The notes beneath the pieces were generated by a model. The model was not told the DNA's origin. It saw only the letters and a list, made by a program, of their open reading frames with translations, and did no database searches. Both the position numbers and the translations under genes were made by a program. Positions 1-17,525 of a stretch of DNA of 44,891 nucleotides are shown piece after piece. This DNA comes from a virus (Duplodnaviria; Heunggongvirae; Uroviricota; Caudoviricetes), in the IMG/VR virus record IMGVR_UViG_2802429240_000008. The stretch is one strand, 5' to 3'. Position 1 is the stretch's first letter; each line of letters begins with the position of its first letter.

Positions 1-1131
1 TCAAATAACCAGTTTTTTCCACTCCTTACCGCGTGCGTCGTTGTAAATATCGGTCATTTTTTGATTCGAATGACCCAGCAAAATTTTGGTATCAATTCCC
101 TGTTCTCTGAACAATCTTTCTGATAAAGATCTTTGCTCATGGAAAGAGGGTGGCGTGCCATTAGCACGCCAGTTGTAATCCACAGAATCCCGGGCTTTTT
201 TAAATGCGACTGTTAACGTTGCTGGTTTAACCATCCCGCCGCGCTTACCCATCCCCTTAGCGTGATGATGGTGCAATAACCACGGACTAAGGATGTAATC
301 ACGACAGGATGACACCACGTCACCCAGGGTAAGATTTAATTTGTCGCAACGCAGAGCCAGAGGAATGGCTATCCGGGCTCCTGTTTTTTGCTGTTCGACA
401 TGAAGGTAACCATCCCGGATATCCGAAAACTGCATTTTGCAAATATCCGAAAGACGCTGGCCCGTCATCAGTGCCAGCAGCATGCCGCGCTGTAAAAAGT
501 AACCATCCTTTTCCGCTGCGTTATAAATCATCATCCACTCATCAAAAGTCAGTCGCTGTCTTGATATCCGCACTTGCGGTTTTTTTGCCGATTCAGCCGG
601 GTTAAAGCCTGGCGGGACATCACCCGTTTGTTGAGCCTCCCGGAAAACATCGATCAATACCTTCCTGAAAATTTGTCCCATTCTGTTATGTCCCTTTGCC
701 TTGTATTCTTCCAGCACCGATACCACATCTTTTACGGTTATGGCATCTAGCGGCCTGGCTCCAAAACGTTCATCAAACACCCTGAGAGGAGCCGCTTTTT
801 GCTTCAGCGTGCTGAGTTTGATCTCTCCGTTCTCATATCTTTCCTGTTGAATTTTTCTGTAATTATTCAGAAAAATGGAAACGGTTGATGCGCCGCCGGT
901 ATCACTAATAATTTTCTCCTGCAGACTGAGCATTTGCTCCATTTGTTGTCTGGCAAGACGGCTGTTCGCTTCTGCTGCAATGGTTTCTGCCAGTTTCTGG
1001 TCAATACTGCCGAGTCCATGATTTTTACCTGTGATGGGATGCCTGTAACGCCAGTAAACTTTGTTATTTCTTTTGTCAAAATACGGAGATAAACCCGGAA
1101 CATCGGTTTTATATTTTCGCGGGCGCGCCAT
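1..1131 (-). CDS. int: Phage integrase, tyrosine recombinase family (376 aa)
   Basis: Complete ORF with stop at 1-3; C-terminal LLGHSNQKMTDIY box typical of tyrosine recombinases; its 5' end overlaps the upstream excisionase gene as in lambdoid int-xis pairs. Confidence 0.9.
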   Translation of the reverse strand: MARPRKYKTDVPGLSPYFDKRNNKVYWRYRHPITGKNHGLGSIDQKLAETIAAEANSRLARQQMEQMLSLQEKIISDTGGASTVSIFLNNYRKIQQERYENGEIKLSTLKQKAAPLRVFDERFGARPLDAITVKDVVSVLEEYKAKGHNRMGQIFRKVLIDVFREAQQTGDVPPGFNPAESAKKPQVRISRQRLTFDEWMMIYNAAEKDGYFLQRGMLLALMTGQRLSDICKMQFSDIRDGYLHVEQQKTGARIAIPLALRCDKLNLTLGDVVSSCRDYILSPWLLHHHHAKGMGKRGGMVKPATLTVAFKKARDSVDYNWRANGTPPSFHEQRSLSERLFREQGIDTKILLGHSNQKMTDIYNDARGKEWKKLVI

Positions 1132-1357
1132 CTTCCAGTATCCTCTTCAAAGCAGGGTGATCTGTGGCGATCACCTCAGGCTTGTTTACCATTCCGACAA
1201 AGCGAGCGCGTGGATCCACTCGCCAGTGCCTTCCTACTTTTTTGGGGAGAGGAAATATCATTCCGGCTTTAGCGTATTTACTTAACGTACCCGGAGTAGG
1301 GACCGGTTCACTGAATTCCTCTTTTGCCCACTCAGTGAGCAGAATAAGTCTTGCCAT
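1109..1357 (-). CDS. xis: Excisionase-like small DNA-binding protein (82 aa)
   Basis: Small basic ORF immediately upstream of and overlapping int; size and position as for phage Xis. Confidence 0.65.
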   Translation of the reverse strand: MARLILLTEWAKEEFSEPVPTPGTLSKYAKAGMIFPLPKKVGRHWRVDPRARFVGMVNKPEVIATDHPALKRILEDGAPAKI

Positions 1358-1421: not shown

Positions 1422-3893
1422 TTAAAAATCAGCCTGATTCGGGATCAGTTTTTGCCAGATAGCTGAAACGTATTTTGCCTGGTAACGGGCGTCATCAAGT
1501 GCATTATGGCGCTCACCTTCGAATGGGATAGCAGTTCTGGCATCGAAGTCTATGGCTTTCCCCAGCTCAACGATTGTGCGTACATCGCGATCGTTGTGGT
1601 AGCGCCACGGGCAGGGGATCCCCTGTCGTTCGTATGAACGGCGTAAAATCACGTTGTCGAAGTTGGCTCCATTTCCCCAGACCTGGACAAAAAATTCACC
1701 GGAGTTTTCGTCGATAAATTCCCGCAATTGCAGTAGTGCATCATCTAACGGAATTTCATCGGTCAGAAGGGCAGATTGCGTCTCACGTGATTGCTTAAGC
1801 CACCATTTAATGACGTCACGATCAATGACTCCGCCAGCAGTATTCAGATCGATGGTCTTGCTAAATTCCGGCCCCATATCTCCGGTTTGTGGATCGAAAA
1901 ATATTGCGCCTATTGAGATAATCGGGGCATCGGGATTTTTTCCCATGGTTTCAAGGTCGATCATCAGATGAATCCCCGCTCTGCTGGTGGATGTGAGATT
2001 ATGATGACTGTTCGCCTTAATTAAGGGATCTGACGCCTCGCCAGTTTCACTATCGCTGGCATGATGCTGATTGCCGCCAGGGTTCTCCTTGTGCTGATGT
2101 GCAGTACCTTCCATTTCCTCCGGATCATTTTCCTGAACTTCAACCTGATTCTCTTCATCGAATGTTTCCTGGTATGTTGCGTCGCCCATCACCGCGCCAC
2201 AATCAGGGCAGCTACCGCCGCCGGTCTGACCGCAGGCGGTGCAGGCTTTTTCCGGCTCCTGTTGCGCTACTGGTTCAACCTGTTTCGTTTCTGGCTCGTT
2301 TTGTTGCGCATTTGGGCTGTTTTGTTCCGTTTTCTGGTCGTTCTGTTCCGATTCTTGCTGGTTCTGGTTTACAGAATCGCGGGTTTCAATCCCCTTCACC
2401 CATTTCGGATCATTCGGGTCGCTAATCCCTGCAACAAATTCTCCGCGAGAGGCAGCAAGCAACTTATCGGCGTCAGGCTGGCTGATATTGGCTGCCTGCA
2501 TAATTTTGTTTACTTCCTCAGCGGTAACTTTTACCGGCTCTGGTTGTGCGGTCGTGTCAGATGCACCAGTATTTTGTTGTGAACCTGAGTATGTACCGTT
2601 TTTGCGGGCAAAATATTCTTCTTTCGTGATTTCAGTAGCCCCTGCAGTCAGCGCCTTATTCAGACCAGAAAGTTTGTTTGCGCGACCATATTTTTCGCCA
2701 TCCTTATCTGTGAAGAGGAAGTAGAACGGCCCCTCACGCTCTACAGATGGTTCGACTTCCACTTTGCATTCGGTTTTTTCGTTGTCCGGAATTGCCGTTT
2801 CCACTGCATCAGTTTCTGGTACTGGCGACGAGAGAGTATCAGTTGCGCTCTGATTTGTTCCTTCATCTTCAAACACGCCCTTTGTAGTCAGGTATTCAGT
2901 AATGTATTTGTTCAGTGCCACAGGGTCTTTGTGAATGTCGATCGGACGTTCACGGACAAGGCCAAAAATAGTCTGGCGGTCGTAGCGAAGGGCATCAGGC
3001 TGTTTGCGCATTGATGCCGAGATACGCTTCCAGTCTTCGCGGTCGTTGTCGATAACTTCATTTTTTGCCCAGCGATGGATGCTGCCGTCAATGTTTCCGG
3101 CATCAATGTCACCAGGCCACAGAGCGTAGGCCAGTTCATCATCCAGTGTTTTCCATGTCTGTTTGTATTCGCGACGAATGGTGGCAGTGGCTGGGGGGAT
3201 TTTCGCTACTGAGTTTTCAGTGTTCTGCCGGTTGACTCTGGCGCAGGCAAGATCAACAACAGACGTGTATTTCCCGGTTTCTTTGCGTTCGGCTTCGCGA
3301 CGTTTTTTCCAGGTGCGTAATTCTGTCTGGATCTCAGGCCATTTTGCACCCGGCTTACATTTATGTTTAACCCACCCGATGGCGAGCAGCTTAAGCTCTG
3401 AATACATGACGTTAACTTCAGGCATTTTCATCAATGCCTCAACGATATGCCCGTCGAATGTTGCCATGTCCTCCTGCAGTAATTCCTGAGCACTAATCAC
3501 CATATCAACGGTGATGTTTTCACATGTACCGAACTTAACCAGGACCGCGTTCTGTACTTCAAGTGACAGCTTGTCAAAATTGACGTTCATCGGATCGGAT
3601 TCTGGTTCGACCGGAATAAAGGAAGCGGATTCCTCATCCCAGCGGTTTTCCTGCATATATTCGGTATCCCAGGAGTCGATAGCAGGACGGGGCATGCCGG
3701 GTTTATCCTCGCAGACAAGAAATTTATAAGCGCAGTCCTGAGCAGCCGGATATTGCTCCAGGAATTGCCAGGTAAATTTGGCACGGGCGCGGCGTTCGTC
3801 ACCGGCTTCAATGGCAGTGGCTACAGCAACTGCACCTTCTTCCTTTATTGCCTGTTCGTCCGGAATGGCGGCGCAAATAAAGACTTTACTCAT
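1422..3893 (-). CDS. RecE-like exonuclease (823 aa): RecE-type N-terminal/central region fused to a C-terminal DnaQ-like DEDDh 3'-5' exonuclease domain
   Basis: Central segment (DKLLAASRGEFVAGISDPNDPKWVKGI...ACTACGQTGGGSCPDCGAVMGDATYQETFDEENQVE) matches my memory of Rac RecE; C-terminal part has DEDDh motifs (MIDLETMG, WGNGANFDNV, HNALDDARY); ATG at 3891-3893 with upstream GAGG. Confidence 0.75.
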   Translation of the reverse strand: MSKVFICAAIPDEQAIKEEGAVAVATAIEAGDERRARAKFTWQFLEQYPAAQDCAYKFLVCEDKPGMPRPAIDSWDTEYMQENRWDEESASFIPVEPESDPMNVNFDKLSLEVQNAVLVKFGTCENITVDMVISAQELLQEDMATFDGHIVEALMKMPEVNVMYSELKLLAIGWVKHKCKPGAKWPEIQTELRTWKKRREAERKETGKYTSVVDLACARVNRQNTENSVAKIPPATATIRREYKQTWKTLDDELAYALWPGDIDAGNIDGSIHRWAKNEVIDNDREDWKRISASMRKQPDALRYDRQTIFGLVRERPIDIHKDPVALNKYITEYLTTKGVFEDEGTNQSATDTLSSPVPETDAVETAIPDNEKTECKVEVEPSVEREGPFYFLFTDKDGEKYGRANKLSGLNKALTAGATEITKEEYFARKNGTYSGSQQNTGASDTTAQPEPVKVTAEEVNKIMQAANISQPDADKLLAASRGEFVAGISDPNDPKWVKGIETRDSVNQNQQESEQNDQKTEQNSPNAQQNEPETKQVEPVAQQEPEKACTACGQTGGGSCPDCGAVMGDATYQETFDEENQVEVQENDPEEMEGTAHQHKENPGGNQHHASDSETGEASDPLIKANSHHNLTSTSRAGIHLMIDLETMGKNPDAPIISIGAIFFDPQTGDMGPEFSKTIDLNTAGGVIDRDVIKWWLKQSRETQSALLTDEIPLDDALLQLREFIDENSGEFFVQVWGNGANFDNVILRRSYERQGIPCPWRYHNDRDVRTIVELGKAIDFDARTAIPFEGERHNALDDARYQAKYVSAIWQKLIPNQADF

Positions 3894-4016: not shown

Positions 4017-4238
4017 TCACCATGACTCTGCTTTTACAGGTAAACCATCACGACCAAGGAAGACTTTAATCATGGTTTCCTTAATACAGTGTTGTGTGGA
4101 AAAATCACGAATATAGAGCCGTTGTTTTTTAATGTTGTTTACCGAAGCAATATATGTTCTTCCTTTATGAATAACATAATCACCGGGAGTCACGCACTGA
4201 CGAGGAATCTCATCAGTTCCGAAGTGATGAGCAATCAT
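4017..4238 (-). CDS. kilR: Kil-like cell-division inhibitor (KilR family, 73 aa from second ATG)
   Basis: [22 protein letters not shown]... resembles Rac KilR as I recall it; the internal ATG at 4236-4238 has a GGAGA RBS 6 nt upstream, whereas the track ORF start at 4250 has none. Confidence 0.5.
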
Positions 4239-4412
4239 AATTATCTCCATTTTTACAAATGAACTTTGTTGATGCGGTGCCTGGTGCCTCCAGGTGACGT
4301 TAACCAGTTAACAATTAACGCCGGATACAGAGAATCCACCCATAACACTGTTTTTGGTTTTAACTGTTCCGCGTGCGCTTAGCCGCATTCACCGCATCAC
4401 AAAATTCACTTT

Positions 4413-4470
4413 AAAAAGGGCGGCAGAGCAGTCACGGAGTAAAACTGATTCCGCCAAACGCCACCAGAAA
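4413..4470 (-). ncRNA. dicF: DicF small RNA (53 nt, 4418-4470) plus 3' U-tract
   Basis: Reverse complement of 4418-4470 is TTTCTGGTGGCGTTTGGCGGAATCAGTTTTACTCCGTGACTGCTCTGCCGCCC, about 2 mismatches from the E. coli K-12 DicF sequence as I remember it, followed by TTTTT; located downstream of small dicB-operon-like ORFs. Confidence 0.8.
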
Positions 4471-4804
4471 ATTGATAACAGAGGGCGTTGTAGCGGGGGT
4501 GTCACTTAAGCGTATGGTCAACCTGACAACCCGGTGTCCTCAACGGGGAAGGAATAACCCCGCCATACTTACCGCCGCGCCATTTCGCGGAGTGCCACAA
4601 CCGGAAGCGCACGGTCGACGAAAATTTAACGACAGGCTATCTATGAACCAGCAACCTCGCCGTGCGCTTTCGTGTTATGGTCTGACTTTTCAGGGAAATA
4701 TCCTTTCAGTAAACTGTCAGTGCCGGATGCTCACCCGTGTCCGGCGCACGCACTCCACCTCACCCGTGGAGAACTCCTTAATCACCAACCCTCAGGAGGG
4801 TGAA

Positions 4805-5080
4805 ATGTCGACTGAAAATGATGAAATCATTAACTCCCTGATACGCCAGATTAATAATTTTGATAAAGCATTGCAGCATGCTGCGGCGCGTAGTGATATA
4901 ACTCTTTTAGCAATTTCATTTCTTGCATCTGTTATGGATAAAAATGAAGTCGTACGACAGAGTCTTGTTGATTATATCGACTCGCTTCAACCCGGCACTT
5001 TCAATCATGAGAGCTTCAATCATGAGAAAGAGCATGTTAAATCTGTTATTAATTCTCTTGTTTTGAATCAAAATAATTAA
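4805..5080 (+). CDS. Hypothetical protein (91 aa), AT-rich accessory gene
   Basis: ATG at 4805 preceded by AGGAGGG RBS; opposite strand to the surrounding leftward operon; the track ORF 4472-5080 extends upstream only because there is no in-frame stop and would run across dicF. Confidence 0.45.
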   Translation: MSTENDEIINSLIRQINNFDKALQHAAARSDITLLAISFLASVMDKNEVVRQSLVDYIDSLQPGTFNHESFNHEKEHVKSVINSLVLNQNN

Positions 5081-5995: not shown

Positions 5996-6056
5996 GATGA
6001 TAATTTAGTTTTCTCATGAAAATTGGTCAAGAGTTTTTGGTGAGAAAACTCAATAT
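5996..6056 (-). promoter_or_regulatory. Candidate leftward promoter (TTGACC-N17-TAAATT on minus strand) flanked by two repressor-operator-like inverted motifs
   Basis: Minus strand reads TTGAGTTTTCTCACC..CTCTTGACCAATTTTCATGAGAAAACTAAATT; motif GAGAAAACT occurs at 6041-6052 and inverted at 6007-6016, and again at 6575-6588. Confidence 0.4.
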
Positions 6057-6116
6057 TTAATACAAAATAAAGCCAATACATTGAAATGTAAGGCTTTAAA
6101 ATTTGTGAAGGGGGGG

Positions 6117-6524
6117 TTATTGATGTTTGTTACGTTTGCGAGCTTCTAGTAGCTCGGTGAATAGGCGATTAAAATTCTCAACGCGGGCACGGAGTTCGCT
6201 GATTTGTGCTTGCTGCTCTGATTTTGGAAGTGCGCGATACAATCGCAACATCTCCAACTCATCTTCCGATAAGTCTAAGGCGCTGTTGAGTGCAACTGGT
6301 GGATCTGGTGTTTTATCCTCGTCACCAAACAGTATCCAAGTTGGTGAACATTGCAATACCTCAGCCAGGCGATGCAAATTTTGCCCGCGCGGGGCTGTAT
6401 GGTCGCTTTCCCATAGTGAAATTGATGAGCCAGATACGCCAGCAGCTTTGCTTAAATCGTTTTGACTTAAACCAACCTGTTTGCGTCTTTCTCTAATTCG
6501 TTGACCTAAAGTTTTCTCGTTCAT
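6117..6524 (-). CDS. dicA: DicA-like HTH (XRE family) prophage repressor, 135 aa
   Basis: N-terminal HTH (LGQRIRERRKQVGLSQNDLSKAAGVSGSSISLWE) and C-terminal LQCSPTWILFGDEDK...ELRARVENFNRLFTELLEARKRN closely resemble E. coli DicA as I recall it; same length; divergent from a Cro-like gene. Confidence 0.85.
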   Translation of the reverse strand: MNEKTLGQRIRERRKQVGLSQNDLSKAAGVSGSSISLWESDHTAPRGQNLHRLAEVLQCSPTWILFGDEDKTPDPPVALNSALDLSEDELEMLRLYRALPKSEQQAQISELRARVENFNRLFTELLEARKRNKHQ

Positions 6525-6601
6525 ATTTAGATATCTTAATAACCCTTGACTTGAGATTCCTTGAGTGATTACTATTGAGAAAACTCAACTTTGGAGGGGT
6601 G
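6525..6601. promoter_or_regulatory. Divergent promoter / operator region between the dicA-like and dicC-like genes
   Basis: Contains TTGACT (6546-6551) and the inverted repeat TTGAGAAAACTCAA (6575-6588) just upstream of the dicC-like start. Confidence 0.4.
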
Positions 6602-6829
6602 ATGTTTAAATCAGACGTAATTAATTTTTATGGGACGAAAGCCAAAGTAGCAAAAGCTGCTGGTGTTGATCCATCTGCTGTTTCTCAATGGGGGGAACTG
6701 GTTCCTGAAGGTCGCGCGATGCGCCTGCAAGAGGCATCCGGCGGGGAACTTCAGTACGACCCCAAAGTTTATGACGAATATCGTAAGGCAAAGCGGGCGG
6801 GGCGGTTGAACAATGAAAATCACCCCTGA
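6602..6829 (+). CDS. dicC: DicC/YdaS-type Cro-like regulator (75 aa)
   Basis: ATG at 6602 just downstream of GGAGG; C-terminal PEGRAMRLQEASGGELQYDPKVY...RAGRLNNENH resembles DicC as I recall it; divergent from the repressor gene. Confidence 0.65.
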   Translation: MFKSDVINFYGTKAKVAKAAGVDPSAVSQWGELVPEGRAMRLQEASGGELQYDPKVYDEYRKAKRAGRLNNENHP

Positions 6830-7364
6830 ACAGGTTTGTGAGGCTCTGGATGCCTGGGTATGCCGACCAGGAATGACACAGGAGCAGGCGACGATATTAA
6901 TCACGGAAGCATTCTGGGCTCTGAAAGAACGCCCGAACATCGATGTTCAACGCGTCACGTTTAATGATGGCGAGGTTGATCAACGGGCGCTGGGCGTTAA
7001 CCGGGTGAAGATATTCGAACGCTGGAAAGCTATCGACACCAGGGATAAGCGGGAAAAATTCACGGCGCTGATTCCGGCAATTATGGAGGCTATCCGGATC
7101 AGCGATTTCAGGTTGTATTGTGAAATTACTGACGGAAAAAGCATTACGTACATGATCGCCGGGTTAAACAAAGAATATGGCGATGTGGTGGAGTCCGGGC
7201 TGCTTTTTGCGGATCCATCTGTTGTGGAACGTGAGACTGACGAGCTTATAGAAAAAGCTATTGCTTTCAAGCATGCGTATCGTCAGCAATATCAATATTA
7301 CTTTGCAGATAAACAAATGTCTGCCAGGGGTTCGTATGAGTATCGATGCACTACGATGGGCTAA
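6813..7364 (+). CDS. Hypothetical early protein (183 aa), possibly YdaT/CII-like
   Basis: ORF directly after the cro-like gene with short overlaps at both ends; family assignment is tentative, from memory only. Confidence 0.45.
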   Translation: MKITPEQVCEALDAWVCRPGMTQEQATILITEAFWALKERPNIDVQRVTFNDGEVDQRALGVNRVKIFERWKAIDTRDKREKFTALIPAIMEAIRISDFRLYCEITDGKSITYMIAGLNKEYGDVVESGLLFADPSVVERETDELIEKAIAFKHAYRQQYQYYFADKQMSARGSYEYRCTTMG

Positions 7365-8376
7365 AAAGGTGAAAACCGGCAGTTCATCCAGTAAGTCAGT
7401 ATTGACCTGGCTTGCTGATATGTGCGGTGCCGATTTGTGTGCATACCCGTCTGTATCTGCACTGGCAGAAGTAACGGAACTGAACAAAAAGACTGTGCAG
7501 GACAGCTTACGACATCTGATGGAGATTGGGTTAATTGTTGATACCGGTGAGAGAAAAGGCAGAACAAAGCAAATTGTGGTGTATCGACTTATCGGTGTAG
7601 AAGAAAGTGTTGCCGAGCCTGAATACACCCAAAAACGGGAGTCTTTAAAGGTGGGTAAAATTGGTGCTGTTAATAAAAACAGTACCGAAAATGGTTATGT
7701 TTCAGCACAAAACAGACCCAAAAACGGAACTCTTAGCTGCATGGAAAATAACCAAAGACACCCAAATTTTCCATCAAAGACACCCAAAAACGGATCACGG
7801 AACCCAAAGGAACCCAAAGATCTAAACCCCACACATAACACACGCGAGAGTGCTCCGACCAGTGAGCAGGAAGTTTTGTCGTTACAGGCAGCACCCCCTG
7901 TATTCCTGGATGGCCTGAGCGAACCCATCGGAAAATTTCCGATGACCGATAGCTGGTATCCGTCACGGGATTTTCGACGACGGGCTGCGTTGTGGGGGAT
8001 GGCTTTACCGGAGACAGAATTTACACCTGCTGAACTTGCCGCCTTCCGGGACTACTGGACAGCGGAGGGGAAAGTGTTTACGCAGATTCAGTGGGAGCAG
8101 AAATTCGCCCGTCACGTAAATCACGTCAGGGCGCAGGTTAAACCAGTCAGCAAGGGGGTAAACCATGCAGCAGCACCAGGTGGCACCGCATCACGGGCAG
8201 TTCAGGAAATTCGGGCAGCACGTGAGCAGTGGGAACGTGAAAACGGATTTATCAGCGACGGAAACGGCCTGGAAGCTGTGGGAACTCATGGGGGAGGTTT
8301 ATTCGAACCGCTGGACCCAGAAGAACGGGGCCGCACCTTCGAAGCTCTGGATTGCACAGATTGGCGCGATGACTGA
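7336..8376 (+). CDS. Replication initiation protein (O-like; N-terminal winged-HTH domain, low-complexity linker, C-terminal DnaT-like region)
   Basis: ATG at 7336 with AGGGG RBS; N-terminus MSIDALRWAKKV...LAEVTELNKKTVQDSLRHLMEIGLI; the linker coincides with DNA iterons; followed by a P-like gene. Confidence 0.65.
   Translation: MSIDALRWAKKVKTGSSSSKSVLTWLADMCGADLCAYPSVSALAEVTELNKKTVQDSLRHLMEIGLIVDTGERKGRTKQIVVYRLIGVEESVAEPEYTQKRESLKVGKIGAVNKNSTENGYVSAQNRPKNGTLSCMENNQRHPNFPSKTPKNGSRNPKEPKDLNPTHNTRESAPTSEQEVLSLQAAPPVFLDGLSEPIGKFPMTDSWYPSRDFRRRAALWGMALPETEFTPAELAAFRDYWTAEGKVFTQIQWEQKFARHVNHVRAQVKPVSKGVNHAAAPGGTASRAVQEIRAAREQWERENGFISDGNGLEAVGTHGGGLFEPLDPEERGRTFEALDCTDWRDD
7710..7830. repeat. 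Iteron-like direct repeats (core ACCCAAA, five copies) inside the O-like gene: candidate replication origin
   Basis: gacccaaaaacgga (7716), acacccaaatttt (7757), acacccaaaaacgga (7780), aacccaaagg (7801), aacccaaaga (7811); lambda ori likewise lies within O. Confidence 0.5.
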
Positions 8377-8842
8377 GCAGCAAATCCGGCAGGTCTGCCG
8401 CCAGTGCATGGACCGCTGCCGGGCGGGTGAAACATGGCCTCCGGACCTGGCTGAGTTTGTGGCGCTGATTTCGGAAAGCGGGGCCAATCCATTTGGCCTG
8501 ACGGTGGATGCTGTGATGGAGGAGTACCGCCGCTGGCGTAATGAGTCCTGGCGATATGACGGAAGCGATAAATATCCGTGGTCTCAGCCTGTGCTGTATC
8601 ACATTTGCCTCGAGATGCGTTCAAAGGGGATTGAGCGTCAGATGACCGAAGGGGAGTTAAAACGACTTGCAGAACGGCAGCTGACGAAATGGGCAAAGCA
8701 TGTTGGTGGCGGCTTCAGCGTTCCGCCCGTACGGAGGCAACTGGCAGCACCAGAACGCCCGTCGGGACCAACGCCAATTGAGTTGCTGAAACAGGAATAT
8801 GAACGCCGGAAGGCGGCTGGGTTTGTTTGTGTTGAGAAGTAA
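8165..8842 (+). CDS. Replication protein P-like (helicase loader), 225 aa
   Basis: [19 protein letters not shown]...[14 protein letters not shown] and [39 protein letters not shown] parallel lambda P regions as I recall them; ATG at 8165 with GGGGGT RBS; 5' 212 nt overlap the O-like ORF in another frame. Confidence 0.7.
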
Positions 8843-8862
8843 TTTTTACCGGGAGGAAATTT

Positions 8863-9624
8863 ATGGAGACTGTTTTTGACGCACTGAAAGCGATGGGAAA
8901 AGCCACGTCGGTAGAGCTGGCTGCGCGACTTGATATCAGTCGTGAAGAAGTGCTGAACGAGCTGTGGGAACTGAAAAAGGCTGGCTTCGTTGATAAAAGC
9001 GTATACACCTGGCGTGTGGCTTATAACAACGTTCAGCAGGAACAGCCAGCGCCGGCAGAACTGTCGGAAGAAACCACCACGGCAACAGTCGCTAAAATTT
9101 CGGAGAGCGATTTAACTGCGACGATTGAACAACGTGGACCACAAACGGCGGATGAACTGGCTACGCTGTTCGGTACCACATCCCGCAAAGTGGCGTCAAC
9201 GCTGGCAATGGCAATCGGCAAAGGTCGTCTGATTCGTGTAAACCAGAACGGTAAATTTCGTTACTGCATACCGGGTGATAATTTACCAGCAGAGCCGAAA
9301 GTTGAATCGGTAGCGGAAACCGATGGTAAAGCCTTTCCTCAGCCAGCAGGTGTTGCGTTACCAGTACAGGAAGTTGCAACACAGGAAGATATTAAAACAG
9401 AAACTGTGGCTGATATTGTGCAATCGTTGCCATCGTTTACTGAAACGCGAGCGGATGACCTGGTTTTACCATCGCTGCATATGGCAAACCGCGAATTGCG
9501 TCGGGCGAAAAATCATGTTCAGAAGTGGGAGCGAGTCTGCGCCGCGCTGCGGGAGCTGAACAAGCACCGGGATATTGTTCGACAGATTACTGATTCTTCC
9601 CGCCGTGTTGTATCGGAAAAGTGA
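8863..9624 (+). CDS. Hypothetical phage protein with N-terminal winged-HTH-like region (253 aa)
   Basis: ATG with GGGAGG RBS; N-terminus [43 protein letters not shown]. Confidence 0.6.
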
Positions 9625-9639
9625 TTGCCGGAGGCGCTT

Positions 9640-10062
9640 ATGGCAAAAGTATTTACACAAGAAGAGCGGGAAAAAATTAAAGGGCAGGTTGTTGAGCTGG
9701 TACGCCGGAGTGGGCGCGAGACGTTACGGCAACTGGAAGCCAAGACAGGTGCGACAAGATATCTGATGAGCGTTCTCGCCAGAGAGCTGGTTGCCAGTGG
9801 CGATGTATACAACTCTGGTTACGGGTTATTTCCGTCTGAACAGGCCCGTAAGGATTGGCAAAACGCCCGCAAAAAACTATCCAGGGCAAAGGTGAAAAAA
9901 ACGGTTGTGGTTGATCCTGACCTTATCTGGTCATTACCAGACGGAGAAATACGCCGCTACGACAGGCGCCTGAATATAATCTGTCGCGAGTGCCGGAAGA
10001 GCGAAGCTATGCAGCGTGTACTGGCTTTCTATCAGGGTAATTTTCAGGAGGTAGCGCAGTGA
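9640..10062 (+). CDS. Hypothetical protein (140 aa)
   Basis: ATG at 9640 with GGAGG RBS 6 nt upstream; stop overlaps the next gene start (GTGA). Confidence 0.55.
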   Translation: MAKVFTQEEREKIKGQVVELVRRSGRETLRQLEAKTGATRYLMSVLARELVASGDVYNSGYGLFPSEQARKDWQNARKKLSRAKVKKTVVVDPDLIWSLPDGEIRRYDRRLNIICRECRKSEAMQRVLAFYQGNFQEVAQ

Positions 10063-10532
10063 GTGCACCGGCAACCATTCTTGATATGTGCTGTGGCAGT
10101 CGCATGTTCTGGTTCGATAAGAATGACGACCGGGCGATATTTAGCGATATCATAAAGGAAGAGCACACATTGTGTGATGGACGACGCCTGATTATCAGTC
10201 CTGATCTGATAGCTGATTTTCGTGCACTACCATTTGCAGACGCATCTTTTTCGATGGTTATATTCGACCCTCCGCATCTTGAGCGTGTTGGTGATAACGC
10301 CTGGATGGGAAAGAAATATGGACGGCTGAATAAAGATACCTGGCGTGATGATTTGCGGCAGGGATTTAAAGAAGCCTTTCGTGTGTTGCGTCCATACGGC
10401 GCTCTGATTTTTAAATGGAATGAAACGCAAATACCTGTTCGCCAGATATTGGTACTGACCGACAGAAAACCTGTTATCGGTCAACGAACAGAAAAAAACG
10501 ATAAAACCCACTGGATTATTTTTATGAAATAG
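10059..10532 (+). CDS. Small SAM-dependent methyltransferase-like protein (157 aa), putative orphan DNA methyltransferase
   Basis: GTG start coupled to upstream stop with AGGAGG RBS; motif I-like LDMCCGSRMF and catalytic-like FDPPHL. Confidence 0.55.
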   Translation: MSAPATILDMCCGSRMFWFDKNDDRAIFSDIIKEEHTLCDGRRLIISPDLIADFRALPFADASFSMVIFDPPHLERVGDNAWMGKKYGRLNKDTWRDDLRQGFKEAFRVLRPYGALIFKWNETQIPVRQILVLTDRKPVIGQRTEKNDKTHWIIFMK

Positions 10533-10678
10533 GCATCCAGTGAGTAGGTTCGTAAGGTTACAGATACGTATATCTGAATAATTAAATTCAGTTCTGTAAA
10601 TAAAATTTAATCCTTAACCGGAGGGATTTCTGCACCCTCAAATCATCAGGAGGCCGCCCGAAAGGGCGGTAATGAAAA

Positions 10679-11248
10679 ATGACTGAATTAACCAAAGAGC
10701 AATTAATCGAAGAAGCCAAATTAAAAATAGCGATTGCGAAATGCCATCCCAATTCAGGGGTAGCACGAGTAGAGGGTGAGTTATTCAAAATTGCACTGAC
10801 ATCGCTGGAAGCCGAGCCTGTAAGCCAAACTTACAACTTGCCAGAATTAATCGAAGGCATGGAGGTTTCCATTGATGTAAGCACTTGTGATGCTGATTTA
10901 GGTAATCGCTATTTCGGCACCGTCACCGAGGCGTTAGAACTTGATACAGCCAAGAATGGTTACATCCTCCTGGTTCAGGACGCAGAGCCAAACTTCGATG
11001 TAAATGGCAACTCTCCGGGAACTCCGGATAGTTGGATAAGCTGTAGTGATCGAATGCCTGAAAAGGGCCAGAACGTGCTTATTTCGGTGAATTTCGATAG
11101 CTCTCTGGTTGAACCGCTAATATGCTCCGCATGCTATACCGGAAGCACCTTTCGGCGCGGAGATGCAACGATTAAGCCGGGTAATGGTATTGAGCAAGCA
11201 ACTCACTGGATGCCGCTACCGGAACCACCGCAGGAGGTGAATCAATGA
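10679..11248 (+). CDS. DUF551-like phage protein (189 aa)
   Basis: C-terminal WISCSDRMPEKGQNVLI...HWMPLPEPP resembles the DUF551 signature as I recall it. Confidence 0.55.
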   Translation: MTELTKEQLIEEAKLKIAIAKCHPNSGVARVEGELFKIALTSLEAEPVSQTYNLPELIEGMEVSIDVSTCDADLGNRYFGTVTEALELDTAKNGYILLVQDAEPNFDVNGNSPGTPDSWISCSDRMPEKGQNVLISVNFDSSLVEPLICSACYTGSTFRRGDATIKPGNGIEQATHWMPLPEPPQEVNQ

Positions 11249-11371
11249 CCTGACCTGAGGCATTCACTACGGTAGGAATTGCGATGGCGGTGGCGCTGGT
11301 GGTGCATTCGATTTGCCGATGGGGATAAAAACGGTTTGCGGGAAAAGGAGAGTTAAGTAGAATTGCTGCGG

Positions 11372-11516
11372 GTGCTTGAGGCTATCTGCCTCGGGCATGA
11401 ACACCAACGGCAGATAGATAAAAGCCCCACCCGACTATAAATCGAAGTGAGGCCCCTATATGCTCGTCACATATAGATTGCCTCTTACGGACCGAAAGGT
11501 CAAGGAGAAGCAGGCT
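11372..11516 (+). promoter_or_regulatory. hok mRNA 5' leader with in-frame upstream start (mok-like, ATG 11460); expected location of an antisense Sok-like RNA
   Basis: GCTTGAGGCTATCTGCCTC resembles the 5' end of hok-family mRNAs as I recall it; 8-bp inverted repeat tatctgcc/ggcagata; in-frame ATG at 11460 gives a 70-codon ORF. Confidence 0.4.
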
Positions 11517-11672
11517 ATGAAGCAGCAAAAGGCGATGTTAATCGCCCTGATCGTCATCTGTTTAACCGTCATAGTGACGGCACTGGTAACGAGGAAAGAC
11601 CTCTGCGAGGTACGAATCCGAACCGGCCAGACGGAGGTCGCTGTCTTCACAGCTTACGAACCTGAGGAGTAA
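11517..11672 (+). CDS. hokD: Hok/Gef family type I toxin (51 aa)
   Basis: MKQQKAMLIALIVICLTVIVTALVTRKDLCEVRIRTGQTEVAVFTAYEPEE: single TM helix and conserved C-terminal Hok motif; appears to match HokD (RelF) from memory; AAGGAGAAG RBS. Confidence 0.85.
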   Translation: MKQQKAMLIALIVICLTVIVTALVTRKDLCEVRIRTGQTEVAVFTAYEPEE

Positions 11673-11740
11673 GAGACCAGGCGGGGGAGAAATCCCTCGC
11701 CACCTCTGATGTGTCAGGCATCCTCAACGCACCCGCACTT

Positions 11741-11769
11741 AACCCGCTTCGGCGGGTTTTTGTTTTTAT
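11741..11769 (+). terminator. Rho-independent terminator after hok
   Basis: aacccgc-ttcg-gcgggtt stem-loop followed by tttgttttt. Confidence 0.7.
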
Positions 11770-11892
11770 TTTCAACGCGTTTGAAGTTCTGGACGGTGCC
11801 GGAATAGAATCAAAAATACTTAAGTAGCGCGCAGGGAGAAGAGGGATGGACCCCAAACAGGGGAGTGCTATTTATCTGGAAGGATTCTGTTG

Positions 11893-12153
11893 ATGAAAAT
11901 CGAAGAATTACGTGAAATTTTTAGTGAAGATGGCCTCTATACTGTGCGCGTTGAGAATGGCGCTATTGTCAGCCACTGCCGTATTAAATGTTTACAGTCT
12001 CAACAAAGGAAGAGTGGAGCTGCGTTAATTCATTTGGTGGATGGGCTTGTGACGGATGGTTTTATTTTGCGTGCAAATGAATTTGTCACATCGTTGCCGT
12101 CTCTGAAAGAAGCTGGGATTAAGGCTGGTTTTTCTGCTTTTGAAGATGAGTGA
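11893..12153 (+). CDS. Hypothetical protein (86 aa)
   Basis: ATG at 11893; ORF between the hok locus and the DUF968 gene; no recognisable domain. Confidence 0.45.
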   Translation: MKIEELREIFSEDGLYTVRVENGAIVSHCRIKCLQSQQRKSGAALIHLVDGLVTDGFILRANEFVTSLPSLKEAGIKAGFSAFEDE

Positions 12154-12219
12154 ATTCATCTACAATTCAGCGCAGGGCTGAACCCCTGTTGAGTAACACT
12201 GTGCCACCGGAGAAAGCCG

Positions 12220-12498
12220 ATGGCGCAAAATTCCAGATCACACAATTCTGATAATCTCGCCGTCTTTGCCAGCAGGCACGGGCGGCATTCGCACGCATTC
12301 AAATCTGACTGGTTCCAGCATGATCCATGCACTGAAGAACAGGCAGAGTGGCTAATTCAGAACTACCGCAGACGTGGGTATGAGTTTAGGAAAGCCCTCA
12401 GCCTCGATTATCGTCTCTGGATAATCTACGTCAGACTCCCTTATTCCGAACGCCCACCGCGTCCGTCCCGCACATTCCAGCAACGCATCTGGAGGTAA
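12220..12498 (+). CDS. Hypothetical protein (92 aa)
   Basis: ATG with GGAGA RBS 7 nt upstream; stop immediately precedes the DUF968 gene RBS. Confidence 0.5.
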   Translation: MAQNSRSHNSDNLAVFASRHGRHSHAFKSDWFQHDPCTEEQAEWLIQNYRRRGYEFRKALSLDYRLWIIYVRLPYSERPPRPSRTFQQRIWR

Positions 12499-12499
12499 C

Positions 12500-13549
12500 G
12501 TGCGGGTATTACTTCGACCTGTTCCGGTACCGGAACTTGGGCTGGTGGTGCTAAAACCGGGCCGTGAATCCATGCGGGTATTTCATAATCCTCGCGTGCT
12601 GGTGGAGCCGGAACCAAAAAGCATGTGCGGCCTGCCATCCGGAGTCGTCCCTGCAGTTCGCCAGCCGCTGGCGGAGGATAAATCATTACTGCCATTTTTC
12701 AGCGATGAGCGGGTGATTCGTGCTGCTGGCGGCGCTGGTGCACTGTCTGACTGGCTGTTGCGTCATGTCAAATCCTGCCAGTGGCCTCATGGTGACTATC
12801 ATCACAGTGAAATCGTCATACATCGTTACGGTACCGGCGCGATGGTGTTATGCTGGCACTGCGACAACCAGCTGCGTGACCAGACCTCCGAATCACTCGG
12901 GCAACTTGCTCACCAAAACCTGTCAGCATGGATGATTGACGTCATACGCCATGCAATGAATGGCACGCAGGAGCGGGAATTATCGCTGGCTGAATTATCC
13001 TGGTGGGCGGTCTGCAATCAGGTAGCGGACGCGCTACCGGAGGCAGTATTACGTCGTTCTCTGGGGTTACGTGCTGAAAAAATCCGCTCGCTTTACCGCG
13101 AGAGTGACATCATACCGGGAGAGCAGACAGCCACCAGTATACTGAAGCAGCGCACAAAAAATATTGTGCTACCGCCTCACGCCCACCAGCAACAGAACCC
13201 ACCACAGGAAAAGACGGAGGTCAGCATTGCCGTTGATCCGGAGTCTCCGGAATCTTTCATGAAGCGACCTAAACGTCGCCGCTGGGTAAATGAGAAATAC
13301 ACGCGCTGGGTGAAGACACAGCCGTGTGCGTGTTGTGGTAAGCCAGCTGACGATCCCCATCACCTGATTGGTCATGGTCAGGGCGGAATGGGTACAAAAG
13401 CGCATGACCTCTTTGTGTTGCCTTTGTGCAGAAAGCATCACGACGAGCTGCATGCGGATACCGTGGCATTTGAAAAGAAGTATGGCTCCCAGCTGGAGCT
13501 GATATTTCGTTTTATCGATCGTGCGCTGGCAATTGGCGTATTGGCGTAA
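12500..13549 (+). CDS. DUF968-like protein (YdfU-like, 349 aa)
   Basis: GTG start with GGAGG RBS; Cys/His-rich C-terminus (CACCGKPADDPHHLIGHGQGGMGTKAHDLFVLPLCRKHHDELH); same size as K-12 YdfU as I recall, and located just before Q. Confidence 0.6.
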   Translation: MRVLLRPVPVPELGLVVLKPGRESMRVFHNPRVLVEPEPKSMCGLPSGVVPAVRQPLAEDKSLLPFFSDERVIRAAGGAGALSDWLLRHVKSCQWPHGDYHHSEIVIHRYGTGAMVLCWHCDNQLRDQTSESLGQLAHQNLSAWMIDVIRHAMNGTQERELSLAELSWWAVCNQVADALPEAVLRRSLGLRAEKIRSLYRESDIIPGEQTATSILKQRTKNIVLPPHAHQQQNPPQEKTEVSIAVDPESPESFMKRPKRRRWVNEKYTRWVKTQPCACCGKPADDPHHLIGHGQGGMGTKAHDLFVLPLCRKHHDELHADTVAFEKKYGSQLELIFRFIDRALAIGVLA

Positions 13550-13562
13550 GTGGAGAACGAGC

Positions 13563-14315
13563 ATGAACCTTGAAGCCTTACCAAAATATTACTCCCCAAA
13601 ATCGCCAAAATTGAGCGATGACGCACCGGCGACAGGCTCAGGTGGTTTAACGATTACGGATGTGATGGCTGCGCAGGGGATGGTGCAGTCGAAAGCACCG
13701 CTTGGGTTTGCCTTATTCCTGGCAAAAGTTGGTGTTCAGGATCCTCAGTTTGCTATTGAAGGCCTGCTCAATTACGCGATGGCACTGGGTAACCCGACAT
13801 TGAACAAATTGAGTGAAGAAACACGGCTGCAGATTATTCCTTATCTCGTGAATTTTGCCTTTGCTGATTATTCTAGGTCTGCGGCAAGTAAGGCTCGCTG
13901 TGAACATTGTGCAGGTACGGGATTTCATAATGTATTGCGCGAAGTGGTGAAACACTACAGAAGTGGGGAATCTGTTATCAAGGAAGAATGGGGGAAGGAA
14001 CTATGTCAGCATTGCCATGGTAAGGGCGAAGTCAGCACAGCGTGCAGAGGGTGTAAGGGTAAAGGTATTGTCCTGGATGAAAAAAGAACCCGGCTTCATG
14101 GCGTACCGGTTTATAAGTTTTGTGGGCGTTGTAATGGAAACAGGTTTAGTCGTTTACCGACCACACTGGCACGACGTCATGTCCAGAAGTTGGTACCGGA
14201 CCTGACAGATTATCAGTGGTACAAGGGGTATGCGGACGTCATTGATAAACTGGTAACAAAGTGCTGGCAGGAAGAAGCGTATGCAGAAGCACAACTGAGA
14301 AAAGTGACAAGATAA
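13563..14315 (+). CDS. Late-gene antiterminator Q-like protein (250 aa)
   Basis: ATG at 13563 with GGAGA RBS; several CxxC zinc-binding pairs (CEHCAGTG, CQHCHGKG, CRGCKGKG, CGRCNG); position upstream of the lysis genes. Confidence 0.7.
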   Translation: MNLEALPKYYSPKSPKLSDDAPATGSGGLTITDVMAAQGMVQSKAPLGFALFLAKVGVQDPQFAIEGLLNYAMALGNPTLNKLSEETRLQIIPYLVNFAFADYSRSAASKARCEHCAGTGFHNVLREVVKHYRSGESVIKEEWGKELCQHCHGKGEVSTACRGCKGKGIVLDEKRTRLHGVPVYKFCGRCNGNRFSRLPTTLARRHVQKLVPDLTDYQWYKGYADVIDKLVTKCWQEEAYAEAQLRKVTR

Positions 14316-15076
14316 AAGATTTTCACCGAACGATGGCGACATAACGATTGTATTTTCTAAGGAAACGTGCAAAGAGTTTTCCAATGATGAGCCTTATATG
14401 CATACCGGTGGAAAATATCAATAAGCCGCGCAGAGTGGTTTTTTTGTGGACATAAACTTTGTGCAGAACGGTAACCATTCTGGTTGCCGTGAATGCAGTT
14501 TTTTTACATTGCTGGCTTTTTTAGATTTGTGTTAGTCATTGATATTAACAAGAAGGGGAAAAGACATGCTAAAACGGCAGGATATGAAGGAAACGGTTAT
14601 GCGTGAATGTTCCAGTGTGATTAACCATATCATCTTGGGAAGCCATCCTGATGCAGGGAAGAGGTAACAGTAACGTGCATCAATCAGGCTGCAAATAAAT
14701 GGCTTACGCCGGAAATCTGGCTATCGATGTATTACCGGTTTGTTACCCATGAAGAAAATTAAGGTGATAACGAAACTGATTTTATAGGTGTCTTGTCAGA
14801 GTGTTGCGACGAAACTGGTGTTGGCAGTGTAGGGAAAATAGTAGGATGAAAATTATAAATTGCTTTAAATGAGCTTGATTTCCCTCATGTTATGAGATAT
14901 TTGTCTTATATTGCTGGTTAATTATGAAAATTTTTGTAAATCTACAGCAATAAAATCCATATTAATTAAAGCACTAGATGCGTTTCTGATTTGTGCATGA
15001 AACATACATACCATAATGATTAATTGCATCTATAATTACAGATACAGCATTGTGCTGTTAAAAAACTGGAGTCCCC

Positions 15077-15184
15077 ATGAATACATTATATGTAAGTGAT
15101 TCAAATGAAAAATCTCATGACAGGAATAAAAACAATGAGGATAGTAAGGGTAAGGATAATAAAAAAGACAACCGGAAAGAGTAA
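15077..15184 (+). CDS. Small Lys/Asn-rich hydrophilic ORF (35 aa)
   Basis: Manual translation: MNTLYVSDSNEKSHDRNKNNEDSKGKDNKKDNRKE; weak SD (CTGGAG); in the AT-rich island. Confidence 0.25.
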   Translation: MNTLYVSDSNEKSHDRNKNNEDSKGKDNKKDNRKE

Positions 15185-15219
15185 ATAATCTTTCCTGCAT
15201 AAAAATACTAGGGTGGAAT

Positions 15220-15339
15220 ATGTCAGAACATCCAGATTTTGATGACCGTAAGCCTGATGATGAGCCCGTTGAGCGTCCTGATGAGGGGCAACCATTGAAC
15301 CCTTTTTCACCGGATGATAAAAGAGAACCTATTATTTAG
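15220..15339 (+). CDS. Small acidic ORF (39 aa)
   Basis: Manual translation: MSEHPDFDDRKPDDEPVERPDEGQPLNPFSPDDKREPII; followed about 50 nt later by a strong terminator. Confidence 0.3.
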   Translation: MSEHPDFDDRKPDDEPVERPDEGQPLNPFSPDDKREPII

Positions 15340-15390
15340 ATATAGCAGAATATAGCCGTTTAAAGTAGGTTGTGTTTTGTTGCTATCCTT

Positions 15391-15419
15391 AAACCACCTC
15401 CACAGGAGGTGGTTTTTTA
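15391..15419 (+). terminator. Rho-independent terminator
   Basis: aaaccacctcc-acag-gaggtggttt followed by tttt. Confidence 0.65.
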
Positions 15420-15475
15420 CTAATGGAACATTAATTGGTAGATGTGATTGTGTACGACTTATGGGAGGCTTAAGA

Positions 15476-15661
15476 TTATTTTCTGCCAATAATAAAACCA
15501 AGCGTTAACCCTATGCTTAGAGCGACCACCACGCTAGTCAGTGGATAATTTCTAAATTTATCTTTAACGTTTTCTTTGCCTGCCTGCAAAGCATCGTCAG
15601 CACATGATGCATATTTTTTGACAGTATTAACTATTTCGTTTTCAGATTGATTTGAAGTCAT
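15476..15661 (-). CDS. Small tail-anchored membrane protein (61 aa) with a DUF883/ElaB-like C-terminus
   Basis: Internal ATG at 15659-15661 (the track ORF starts at a TTG); C-terminal LTSVVVALSIGLTLGFIIGRK resembles the membrane anchor of ElaB/YqjD-type proteins. Confidence 0.45.
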   Translation of the reverse strand: MTSNQSENEIVNTVKKYASCADDALQAGKENVKDKFRNYPLTSVVVALSIGLTLGFIIGRK

Positions 15662-16116
15662 GTTTGAAGTCCTGATGTTAAGTGGCTTTTTAATTATAGC
15701 AGATATGCTTTCAATGATAGGGCGAAGAGCTGTTATTGAGGTGATACTATGACCACTCAATCAACATTACATAAAATGACGTTTACTCCTGTTTGGCACA
15801 GTAGCAGAATTTTGCTTCTGCTACTGAAGTCGCTTTAGCACTAGAATATGCTGATGGATAAAGCAGTTCAGCGTATGTACTGCGTCATGCATATCGGTCT
15901 TGCAGATATGACGAGAAGGGGAGACAAGGTGTGTGTAATGTAGAAGTCTTTAAAGTGCTGCCTGGGATAACTCTATGCTGAAGTGCAATTGATAAAAGTA
16001 ACACGATAAAGGTTTTTCAATGAAGATGGCAACGTGATGCTTGCATTTTTCAAAAAATATGGATAAGATTCCCTCAATGATGGGCTTTGTATATCTGATG
16101 TTTAGAAAGAAATTAG

Positions 16117-16146
16117 AAAACCCGCTGATGAGCGGGTTTTGTGCTT
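16117..16146. terminator. Stem-loop terminator, possibly bidirectional
   Basis: aaaacccgct-gatg-agcgggtttt with flanking A/T runs. Confidence 0.55.
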
Positions 16147-16432
16147 TAAATGGGGCAATGGTGATGTTGAACCTCATCCCGGGACCCATGTCTGTTAACT
16201 TATTATTTAACTGGTGACTTAGTTATTTGCCTGATGTTTAAAATGTTTTCTTCCAGTACAATGTCCCTAAACACAATGAGTCTGCTTATTATATTATTAG
16301 CAGAGCTATTACGGCCAAAGTACAGCATAAGCTTTTAAAGCCAATCAACCAGTCATCAAGGCAGACGGGGTTATTCATAAAAACTCTCCATGTGTGATCC
16401 GATGGGGCTTAAAGTAAAAGCTTTAATATAGC

Positions 16433-16633
16433 TCATGAAAGATAAACATTGGCAGCTGAAGGTCCACGTAGACCATTGATTCGGCAAAATTCCACGCGTA
16501 ATCCTGTGGTAATTTCTTCTGCATCGCGGAGATTGAGAGCAGAAACGTGCAGCTGGACATCGATACGGCCATCGGATGGTATGATAAGACCTTTGCCGCT
16601 TTTGTAGTCAAAGGTTTTGACAATTCCTGTCAT
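16433..16633 (-). CDS. cspF: Cold-shock protein, CspA family (CspF-like, 66 aa)
   Basis: [34 protein letters not shown]...[16 protein letters not shown]: cold-shock domain with RNP-like motifs; divergent from a second csp gene. Confidence 0.8.
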
Positions 16634-16946
16634 TTTACGGGACAAAAAAAATTCCTTAATACTGATAACTTGGCGCACTATACACACGTTCCTGAAGAAA
16701 GCTATAGTTTTTTGATGGGGTTGAAGATGGCTGGATGTCTAAAATAAACATTGCTTCATATGTTCAACTATGCGTTAATGATTGCGTCGGTTTGAAGAAC
16801 AGACGATATACGAAGTAGTTTACTAAAGCAGTTCTCATTTCAGGTGTTATTCACTTATTCCTTCTTTGAGTCTCTCCAATTAAGTACGAAGTCGTTTCTG
16901 TTATACAAACCATTTATGCCGAAAGGCTCAAGTTAAGGAATGTAGA

Positions 16947-17443: not shown

Positions 17444-17468
17444 AAACCCGCTCAGGCGGGTTTTTTAT
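17444..17468. terminator. Rho-independent terminator between convergent genes
   Basis: aaacccgc-tcag-gcgggttt followed by tttttatt. Confidence 0.7.
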
Positions 17469-17525
17469 TATCTGCTTTAAATATATTATTAAAATATAAA
17501 AAATACTTGTTGCGAATAAAATCAA

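Follow-up and report, generated by a model that had tools for sequence, protein, structure and literature searches.

A complete YdfE-family gene joining a RecE-like scaffold to a DEDDh-type exonuclease domain in a lambdoid prophage

The 44,891-nucleotide stretch of IMG/VR virus record IMGVR_UViG_2802429240_000008 (Caudoviricetes), hereafter the window, carries near its left end a gene for an 823-residue protein in which a RecE-like scaffold is followed by a DEDDh-type exonuclease domain. Our preferred reading, to which we give a probability of roughly 0.6, is that this gene, an intact member of the YdfE family, belongs to the early-left operon and encodes a 3'-5' DNA exonuclease that works without an annealase. 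The protein is built in three parts, namely an N-terminal scaffold of about 430 residues that is made up of four small folded domains, a linker, and the C-terminal DEDDh domain. The gene and its modules are listed below, together with confidence values from AlphaFold2 (AF2) models, given as the predicted local distance difference test (pLDDT), and ratios of nonsynonymous to synonymous substitution rates (dN/dS) where these belong to a single module.

1422..3893, minus strand: YdfE-family exonuclease gene, a complete open reading frame (ORF) of 823 aa with an ATG start; stop codon at 1422-1424
3270..3893, minus strand: N-terminal module, residues 1-208, corresponding to the part of YdfE that survives in K-12
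2874..3161, minus strand: helical middle domain, residues 245-340 (AF2 pLDDT 80-91; dN/dS 0.09)
2598..2732, minus strand: small beta-hairpin/helix domain, residues 388-432 (AF2 pLDDT 76-83, flanked by disordered linker below 50; dN/dS 0.11)
2019..2471, minus strand: segment most similar to RecE, residues 475-625 (RecE 455-591), which ends at the mosaic junction
2196..2243, minus strand: CxxC-x7-CxxC motif CTACGQTGGGSCPDCG, residues 551-566, common to RecE (RecE 518-533)
1455..1970, minus strand: predicted DEDDh (DnaQ-fold) 3'-5' exonuclease domain, residues 642-813 (PF16473, E 2.1e-65)

Domain architecture, family and relation to RecE

The biochemical class of the protein is set by its C-terminal domain. 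The motifs DLET, FDNV and HNALDDA, which the initial annotation had recognized as those of a DEDDh nuclease, lie where it had placed them, at residues 646, 745 and 796, and the catalytic pentad is complete, with D646 and E648 forming Exo I (DxE), D746 forming Exo II (D), and H796 and D801 forming Exo III (Hx4D). The Pfam family PF16473 (Rv2179c-like 3'-5' exonuclease) matches residues 642-813 over profile positions 2-177 of 177 at 220.2 bits against a cut-off of 27, and is the only strong Pfam match, the one other being a weak RNase_T match on the same residues. When the protein was searched against the sequences of the Protein Data Bank (PDB), the exonuclease DexA of phage T4 (8kel_A, E 1.4e-4) was the only match at an E-value below 0.01, and no Rv2179c chain was returned. 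A DnaQ/RNase H-like fold is seen in the AF2 model of residues 540-823, in which the domain itself reaches a pLDDT of about 70-88 and the stretch from residue 540 to about 640 is modeled as disordered. Foldseek placed this model closest to the same DexA chain (probability 1.00, template modeling (TM) score 0.55), followed by RNase T, ERI3, 3'hExo and the oligoribonucleases (Orn), the top matches all being DEDDh enzymes. Every catalytic residue aligns with its counterpart in DexA, which like its Escherichia coli homologue EcD belongs to the PF16473 subfamily, however, identity to DexA is only 19-30% and the extra loops of DexA are missing here. Moreover, DexA (227 aa) and EcD are standalone enzymes, whereas here the domain forms the C-terminal fifth of 823 residues. 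We regard the DEDDh class as clear and predict a 3'-5' exonuclease activity from it.

Ahead of this domain, the protein resembles RecE, as the initial annotation had said of its central region. BLASTP aligns residues 262-625 with residues 278-591 of K-12 RecE (E 2e-61), the homology starting in the helical middle domain (RecE residues about 278-350) and becoming near-identity from residue 478 to 625. Compared as DNA (blastn), window positions 2020-2469 are 77% identical to recE codons 455-591. The protein alignment stops at residue 625 (RecE 591), and homology therefore breaks at the boundary between the non-catalytic and nuclease parts of RecE. The PD-(D/E)XK nuclease domain of RecE (RecE residues about 564/606-866) has no counterpart in the protein, in which the Pfam nuclease matches are to DEDDh families only, and a phmmer search with RecE 592-866 matched other relatives but not P0121, the cluster representative of this protein. 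Domain search and structure model thus agree with the earlier view that the C-terminal domain does not have the RecE nuclease fold. The NCBIfam equivalog for exodeoxyribonuclease VIII (PRK09709/NF007259) scores 271 bits, which is below its cut-off of 1269, and its alignment is confined to residues 219-626 (profile positions 243-603 of 877). The first ~260 residues are of the YdfE_N type and not of the Exonuc_VIII (PF06630) type found in RecE. In summary of this comparison, the gene shares with recE of the Rac prophage the slot between kil and xis/int of a Rac/Qin-like lambdoid prophage and a homologous non-catalytic region that includes the CxxC...CxxC motif. RecE, however, is a PD-(D/E)XK 5'-3' double-stranded DNA exonuclease with recT next to it, whereas here a DEDDh domain of predicted 3'-5' polarity is found and xis comes next.

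Within the scaffold, residues 1-208 were modeled as an alpha/beta domain (1-100) and a helical domain (105-208), to which the middle and beta-hairpin/helix domains listed above are added. The linker that follows is long, acidic, rich in Q and E and mostly disordered, and it holds the CxxC...CxxC motif, the whole being nearly identical to its RecE counterpart. The motif is possibly a zinc ribbon, in which case it would presumably bind metal. At the far end of the linker, an in-frame methionine, M644 (MIDLET), opens the exonuclease domain, with the sequence GGGGA eight bases upstream (window 1962-1990, minus strand), and the standalone homologue EcD starts at the position equivalent to M644 (MIDTET). 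These starts are consistent with descent of the exonuclease domain from a once-separate gene, and internal initiation at M644 is conceivable.

The protein belongs to a family that is already catalogued. The PHROG family phrog_2082 ("exonuclease") matches it over its full length (1-823 of 823). Precomputed Pfam matches to PF27430 (YdfE_N) and PF27432 (YdfE_C) are on record for proteins that share 98-99% identity with residues 1-640, and for a relative, and it is from the near-identical proteins, rather than from direct scoring, that the assignment of the window protein to YdfE_N and YdfE_C is taken. The product of ydfE (b1577), a pseudogene of the Qin prophage of K-12, is 86% identical over the first 256 residues, and the two genes are of the same family and lie in the same neighborhood (dicF, a cell-division inhibitor gene, ydfE, int). 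They differ in that IS2E cuts the K-12 copy after about residue 256, so that its linker and exonuclease domain are missing, whereas the window copy is complete. The window gene is the intact form of ydfE.

The gene is by no means an isolated curiosity. By megablast, the gene is present at a query coverage of at least 80% in 3531 of 5426 complete E. coli genomes (about 65%), with a median of two places per E. coli genome with any match. It is also found in the cultured phages mEp460, Tritos, HannyBb and the PPompW group, the IMG/VR locus L008 holds a 100% identical copy, and the nearest proteins are those of Escherichia albertii (99%). With its PHROG entry, its YdfE_N, YdfE_C and Rv2179c-like Pfam families and its K-12 pseudogene, the gene family is known, abundant and of clear biochemical class. 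Its copies are annotated variously as "exonuclease", as "3'-5' exoribonuclease" by the NCBI Prokaryotic Genome Annotation Pipeline (PGAP) and, in older records, as "exodeoxyribonuclease VIII". The analysis has corrective value here, as many records labeled "exodeoxyribonuclease VIII" or "RecE" wrongly imply RecET recombination with 5'-3' polarity.

To place the protein among its wider relatives, residues 1-640 were searched with HMMER against 1.84 billion 50%-identity representatives, which returned 254 clusters at E ≤0.001, many of them fragments, and modules were mapped with phmmer on the long representatives. The N-terminus in this family is either of YdfE type or of RecE type (Pfam Exonuc_VIII), and most long representatives also have the middle module and the CxxC-containing module. 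Three different C-terminal ends follow. A DEDDh C-terminus is found in seven long representatives, for example in P0129, where it is joined to a RecE-type N-terminus. The RecE PD-(D/E)XK C-terminus is found in others (e.g., P0142, P0189, and P0243), and a third tail of about 150-510 aa sits on the same scaffold in 25 representatives (P0126, P0131, P0134, P0136, P0150, P0166, and others). Eight members with the third tail were scanned and gave no Pfam match, and the one tested against the PDB (P0136) gave no sequence match. We considered whether this tail is a diverged RecE nuclease and rejected it, given an hhalign probability of 2%, no Pfam matches in these eight members and no PDB sequence match for P0136. 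A gene with the third tail occupies 6001-8370 of loci L088 and L089, and in an Enterobacter prophage such a gene is followed by a Sipho_Gp157 or "Mu Gam-like end protection" gene. The initial annotation had called the protein a domain-swapped recombination exonuclease, and the first half of this description stands, with the break at residue 625 (RecE 591). The swap is real and recurrent in the family.

The gene is also well maintained. Among its relatives, 77 of 79 encode exactly 823 aa and 78 of 79 retain the CxxC...CxxC motif, while the individual catalytic residues are kept in 73-78 of 78. Against 77 relatives, dN/dS is 0.20 overall. The N-terminal module stands at 0.15, the middle domain at 0.09, residues 388-435 at 0.11, the linker segments at 0.27 and 0.47, and the DEDDh domain at 0.17. 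Purifying selection acts on every module. Five of the 79 relatives have D646N in the first catalytic motif (HMMINLETMG for HLMIDLETMG) in an otherwise intact protein of 823 aa, and these copies, which come from IMG/VR loci among L008-L087, could be catalytically dead variants.

Left-arm position and the search for an annealase

The exonuclease gene occupies the distal end of the leftward early string (cI-side, DicF, kil, exonuclease, xis, int), which is the slot filled elsewhere among lambdoid phages by exo-bet-gam in lambda, erf-abc in P22, and recE-recT in Rac. Its neighbors are as follows.

1..1131, minus strand: integrase gene at the left end of the prophage, a 376-aa ORF directly downstream of xis, identified by its position, since related prophages have an annotated integrase at the equivalent site
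1109..1357, minus strand: xis (excisionase), directly downstream of the exonuclease gene (phrog_629, E 4.6e-34)
4017..4250, minus strand: kil (KilR-like FtsZ inhibitor), the next gene upstream in the leftward string (phrog_294, E 2.6e-34; product 81% identical to Rac KilR)
4418..4469, minus strand: small RNA DicF, located upstream of kil (Rfam RF00039, with 69 bits where the gathering score is 48)

The left-arm order DicF, kil, exonuclease, xis, int mirrors the order dicF, dicB, ydfD, ydfE, intQ of K-12 Qin, with DicF lying 525 bp upstream of the exonuclease gene on the same strand. Going by gene order, induction would switch on the exonuclease gene together with the leftward early genes.

The gap between the stop codon of the exonuclease gene and xis is 64 bp, and therefore no annealase gene fits between the two, in keeping with the earlier statement that no RecT-like gene lies there. 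The search was extended across the window, again with no trace of RecT, Erf or Red-beta. PHROG scans of 50 other window ORFs, drawn from the early, nin, lysis, head and tail regions, returned no annealase. Among the early genes they identified a repressor, Cro, CII-like, O-like and P-like replication, Ren-like, methyltransferase, DUF968/HNH and Q products, and among the late genes lysis, terminase, portal, protease-capsid and tail proteins, Lom proteins, tail fibers and an anti-repressor. When Rac RecT, lambda Bet, Exo and Gam, and P22 Erf, Abc1, Abc2 and Arf served as tblastn queries against the window, the best E-value was about 0.06, that for RecT being 3.3. These negatives cover the window only, which ends inside the right-hand accessory region (the anti-repressor ORF reaches base 44891), with a few prophage genes beyond it. 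Known annealases are about 200-270 aa in length, and the ORFs between the exonuclease gene and the cI repressor, at 56-113 aa, are therefore too short for one. In the nin-like region (8800-14400), no RusA, NinB or NinG-type recombination accessory gene was detected. In mEp460 and at the H26 locus, RusA is encoded beside the DUF968 gene, while in the window the DUF968/HNH gene (12500-13549) is followed directly by Q.

The same holds for the relatives of the gene. Some 1 Mb of sequence from 80 related viral loci, reaching as far as 10 kb upstream of the gene, gave no match to RecT, Bet, Erf, lambda Exo, Gam or Abc, and in the divergent DEDDh-type relatives P0251 and P0140 the gene is followed directly by xis or int, in contrast to Rac, where recT follows recE. 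Absence of RecT, Bet and Erf is thus a family-wide trait of the DEDDh versions examined (80 of 80 loci and the two divergent relatives). Although the gene shares its early-left position with lambda Exo-Bet, P22 Erf-Abc and Rac RecE-RecT, the window differs from these two-component recombinases in lacking an annealase, a 5'-3' exonuclease and a RecBCD modulator of the Gam or Abc kind. At one locus (L094, 7565-8380, plus strand), a 271-aa protein is encoded in the place of recT after a diverged RecE-type relative (Exonuc_VIII and DUF3799). It has no similarity to RecT and is a member of phrog_3657, a family of unknown function, so that the intended RecT control was uninformative, and Rac itself takes the place of this control. 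This protein may be an unrecognized annealase.

Proposed activity and alternative functions

DEDDh enzymes hydrolyze nucleotides from free 3'-OH ends with the help of two metal ions, and by analogy the C-terminal domain would remove nucleotides from such ends by two-metal-ion catalysis. DNA would be the likeliest substrate, because DexA is the nearest solved relative in both sequence and fold and because the scaffold is common to the DNA enzyme RecE. RecE and lambda Exo make 3' tails for an annealase, and to our knowledge the exonucleases of known exonuclease-annealase pairs are all of opposite polarity to the DEDDh 3'-5' type. The enzyme would be expected to trim or destroy 3' tails rather than to create them. 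With such tails removed and not made, it would act without an annealase, which fits the absence of an annealase gene. The most speculative steps come last, namely that the RecE-type scaffold might take the nuclease to whatever the front part of RecE targets, presumably DNA ends or a host factor, and that its job might be to degrade or trim linear DNA early in lytic growth.

Several points weigh against the proposal of an annealase-independent DNA exonuclease in the early-left operon. We found no measured activity, substrate or phenotype in the literature for any full-length member of the family. DNA specificity is called into question by PF16473 being named after the RNA exonuclease Rv2179c and by the frequent activity of DEDDh enzymes on DNA as well as RNA. 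The confidence of the C-terminal model is only moderate (mean pLDDT 59, TM-score 0.55 to DexA), and the search with the scaffold model found no fold match, which leaves a targeting role as pure inference. Membership in the operon is not helped by the scan for consensus promoters and terminators of a transcription unit, in which counts were no higher than the shuffled expectation. Finally, the D646N copies suggest that catalysis is not universally retained in the family.

Among the alternatives, we weighed whether the protein could be an exclusion or defense nuclease acting against incoming phages with modified DNA. EcD, a standalone E. coli homologue of DexA ("HREX"), is reported to digest T4 DNA modified with 5-hydroxymethylcytosine (5hmC), to spare unmodified DNA and to protect cells from T4, and bacterial homologues of DexA are commonest in Escherichia (PMC12153337). 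The C-terminal domain falls in the same DexA/PF16473 family and exclusion genes are frequent in prophages, however, EcD is a different, short standalone enzyme and the features said to define its 5hmC-only state are not clearly reproduced in alignments of the window protein to DexA. In EcD, specificity for modified DNA is attributed to the loss of D90, a tetramer contact in DexA (PMC12153337), whereas the equivalent of D90, alanine in EcD, is retained here as D718 (HMMER and MAFFT). The 5hmC-reading W152 of DexA aligns with H766, with W763 nearby, and D169 may have its counterpart in either D782 or D784, according to where the gaps are placed. In PADLOC, the sole match was to a generic CRISPR-associated DEDDh model (E 8e-5), and a single paper stands behind the HREX claim. 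The leftward early string of lambdoid prophages is repressed in the lysogen, and the position of the gene beside kil, xis and int in that string counts against a defense role. On balance, an HREX-type function seems unlikely. We also considered whether EcD is simply the C-terminal fragment of this protein, which was rejected since the EcD primers encode MIDTET...TIPETY and not MIDLET...NQADF.

A broader interpretation concerns the scaffold itself. According to a review (PMC11611040), the front part of RecE, whose function it gives as unknown, is not needed for nuclease activity but improves linear-linear recombination, full-length RecE performing better in this than the nuclease domain alone. 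That the same scaffold carries three alternative C-termini suggests a role in targeting or assembly. It is tempting, if something of a long shot, to see in it a portable targeting platform with interchangeable ends (RecE 5'-3', DexA-like 3'-5' and the third domain), the DEDDh version being an annealase-independent weapon. The targets of such a weapon might be the DNA of competing phages, as in HREX, host DNA, or a defense intermediate with 3'-ended DNA. If true, this would supply the first function both for the front part of RecE and for a gene that about two thirds of E. coli genomes carry. The interest that is left in this family therefore lies in the function of the YdfE/RecE scaffold and in the role of a 3'-5' exonuclease in what is usually a slot for recombination genes, and the pattern of module shuffling offers a handle for testing what the N-terminal region of RecE does.

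It is quite unlikely, in our estimation, that the enzyme acts on RNA or short oligonucleotides in the manner of Mycobacterium tuberculosis Rv2179c, RNase T or Orn, with transcripts of phage or host, the co-transcribed DicF precursor or nucleotide signals as substrates. The naming of the Pfam family for the Rv2179c exoribonuclease would fit such a role, as would the ranking of RNase T, ERI3, 3'hExo and the oligoribonucleases directly after DexA among the fold matches, the PGAP name "3'-5' exoribonuclease" given to many copies, and the position of DicF 525 bp upstream on the same strand. Nevertheless, the only PDB sequence match at an E-value below 0.01 is to a DNA exonuclease, DexA, and not to an Rv2179c chain, the scaffold is shared with the DNA enzyme RecE, and the slot otherwise holds modules of DNA metabolism. 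Rv2179c, RNase T, Orn and the ERI enzymes share with the window protein a Pfam family name or the DnaQ fold and the same DEDDh set, but they are cellular RNA-processing enzymes without a phage scaffold.

Very doubtful is the view that the gene encodes a true RecE-like recombination exonuclease, served by an unrecognized partner, such as an annealase from one of the small ORFs, or by the RecA/RecFOR proteins of the host. The gene does fill the recombination-module slot of lambdoid genomes, several neighboring small ORFs are of no known function, and the front part that the protein has in common with RecE enhances linear-linear recombination when present in full-length RecE (PMC11611040). Against this, the polarity is predicted to be opposite, such that the enzyme would remove the very 3' tails that annealases use, and the ORFs between the gene and cI are short in comparison with known annealases. 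RecT, Bet and Erf are missing both from the window and from the 80 related loci, and neither RusA, NinB nor another recombination accessory gene was found in the window. The recombination role that the initial annotation had attached to the swapped domain is thus left unsupported by the predicted opposite polarity and the family-wide absence of RecT, Bet and Erf. Lastly, a decaying, non-functional mosaic left by prophage recombination deserves next to no credence, as, despite the K-12 pseudogene cut by IS2, the truncated copies among database entries and the D646N copies in 5 of 79 relatives, this reading is largely refuted by the selection analysis, with an intact ORF, near-uniform length, conserved catalytic residues and dN/dS below 0.5 in every module.

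Other features of the window

A few further observations were made outside the exonuclease gene. Next to DicF, on the strand opposite to the leftward genes, lies a 202-aa ORF with a TTG start (4472-5080, plus strand) without a match in PHROG. Probably this ORF is no gene at all, or a gene only in its final ~90 codons. Further to the right, the O-like ORF (7261-8376, plus strand) and the P-like ORF (8165-8842, plus strand) overlap by 212 bp in different frames, and both match phrog_15931 (482 positions), at 163-347 and 281-482, respectively. The two may correspond to one fused protein in some phages, or the P-like ORF may start further downstream.

A hok/sok-type toxin-antisense locus was recognized at 11370-11672, where a sok RNA (RF01794, 104 bits) overlaps a Mok/Hok-like ORF (11460-11672). 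Between Q and the lysis genes, an AT-rich island extends over about 14300-18100, with a GC content of 37-41% versus about 50% elsewhere. This island contains small unknown ORFs and two ORFs that are cold-shock-like by sequence (16433-16687, minus strand, and 16947-17162, plus strand), together with a match to the cspA thermoregulator at 16786-17227 (151 bits).

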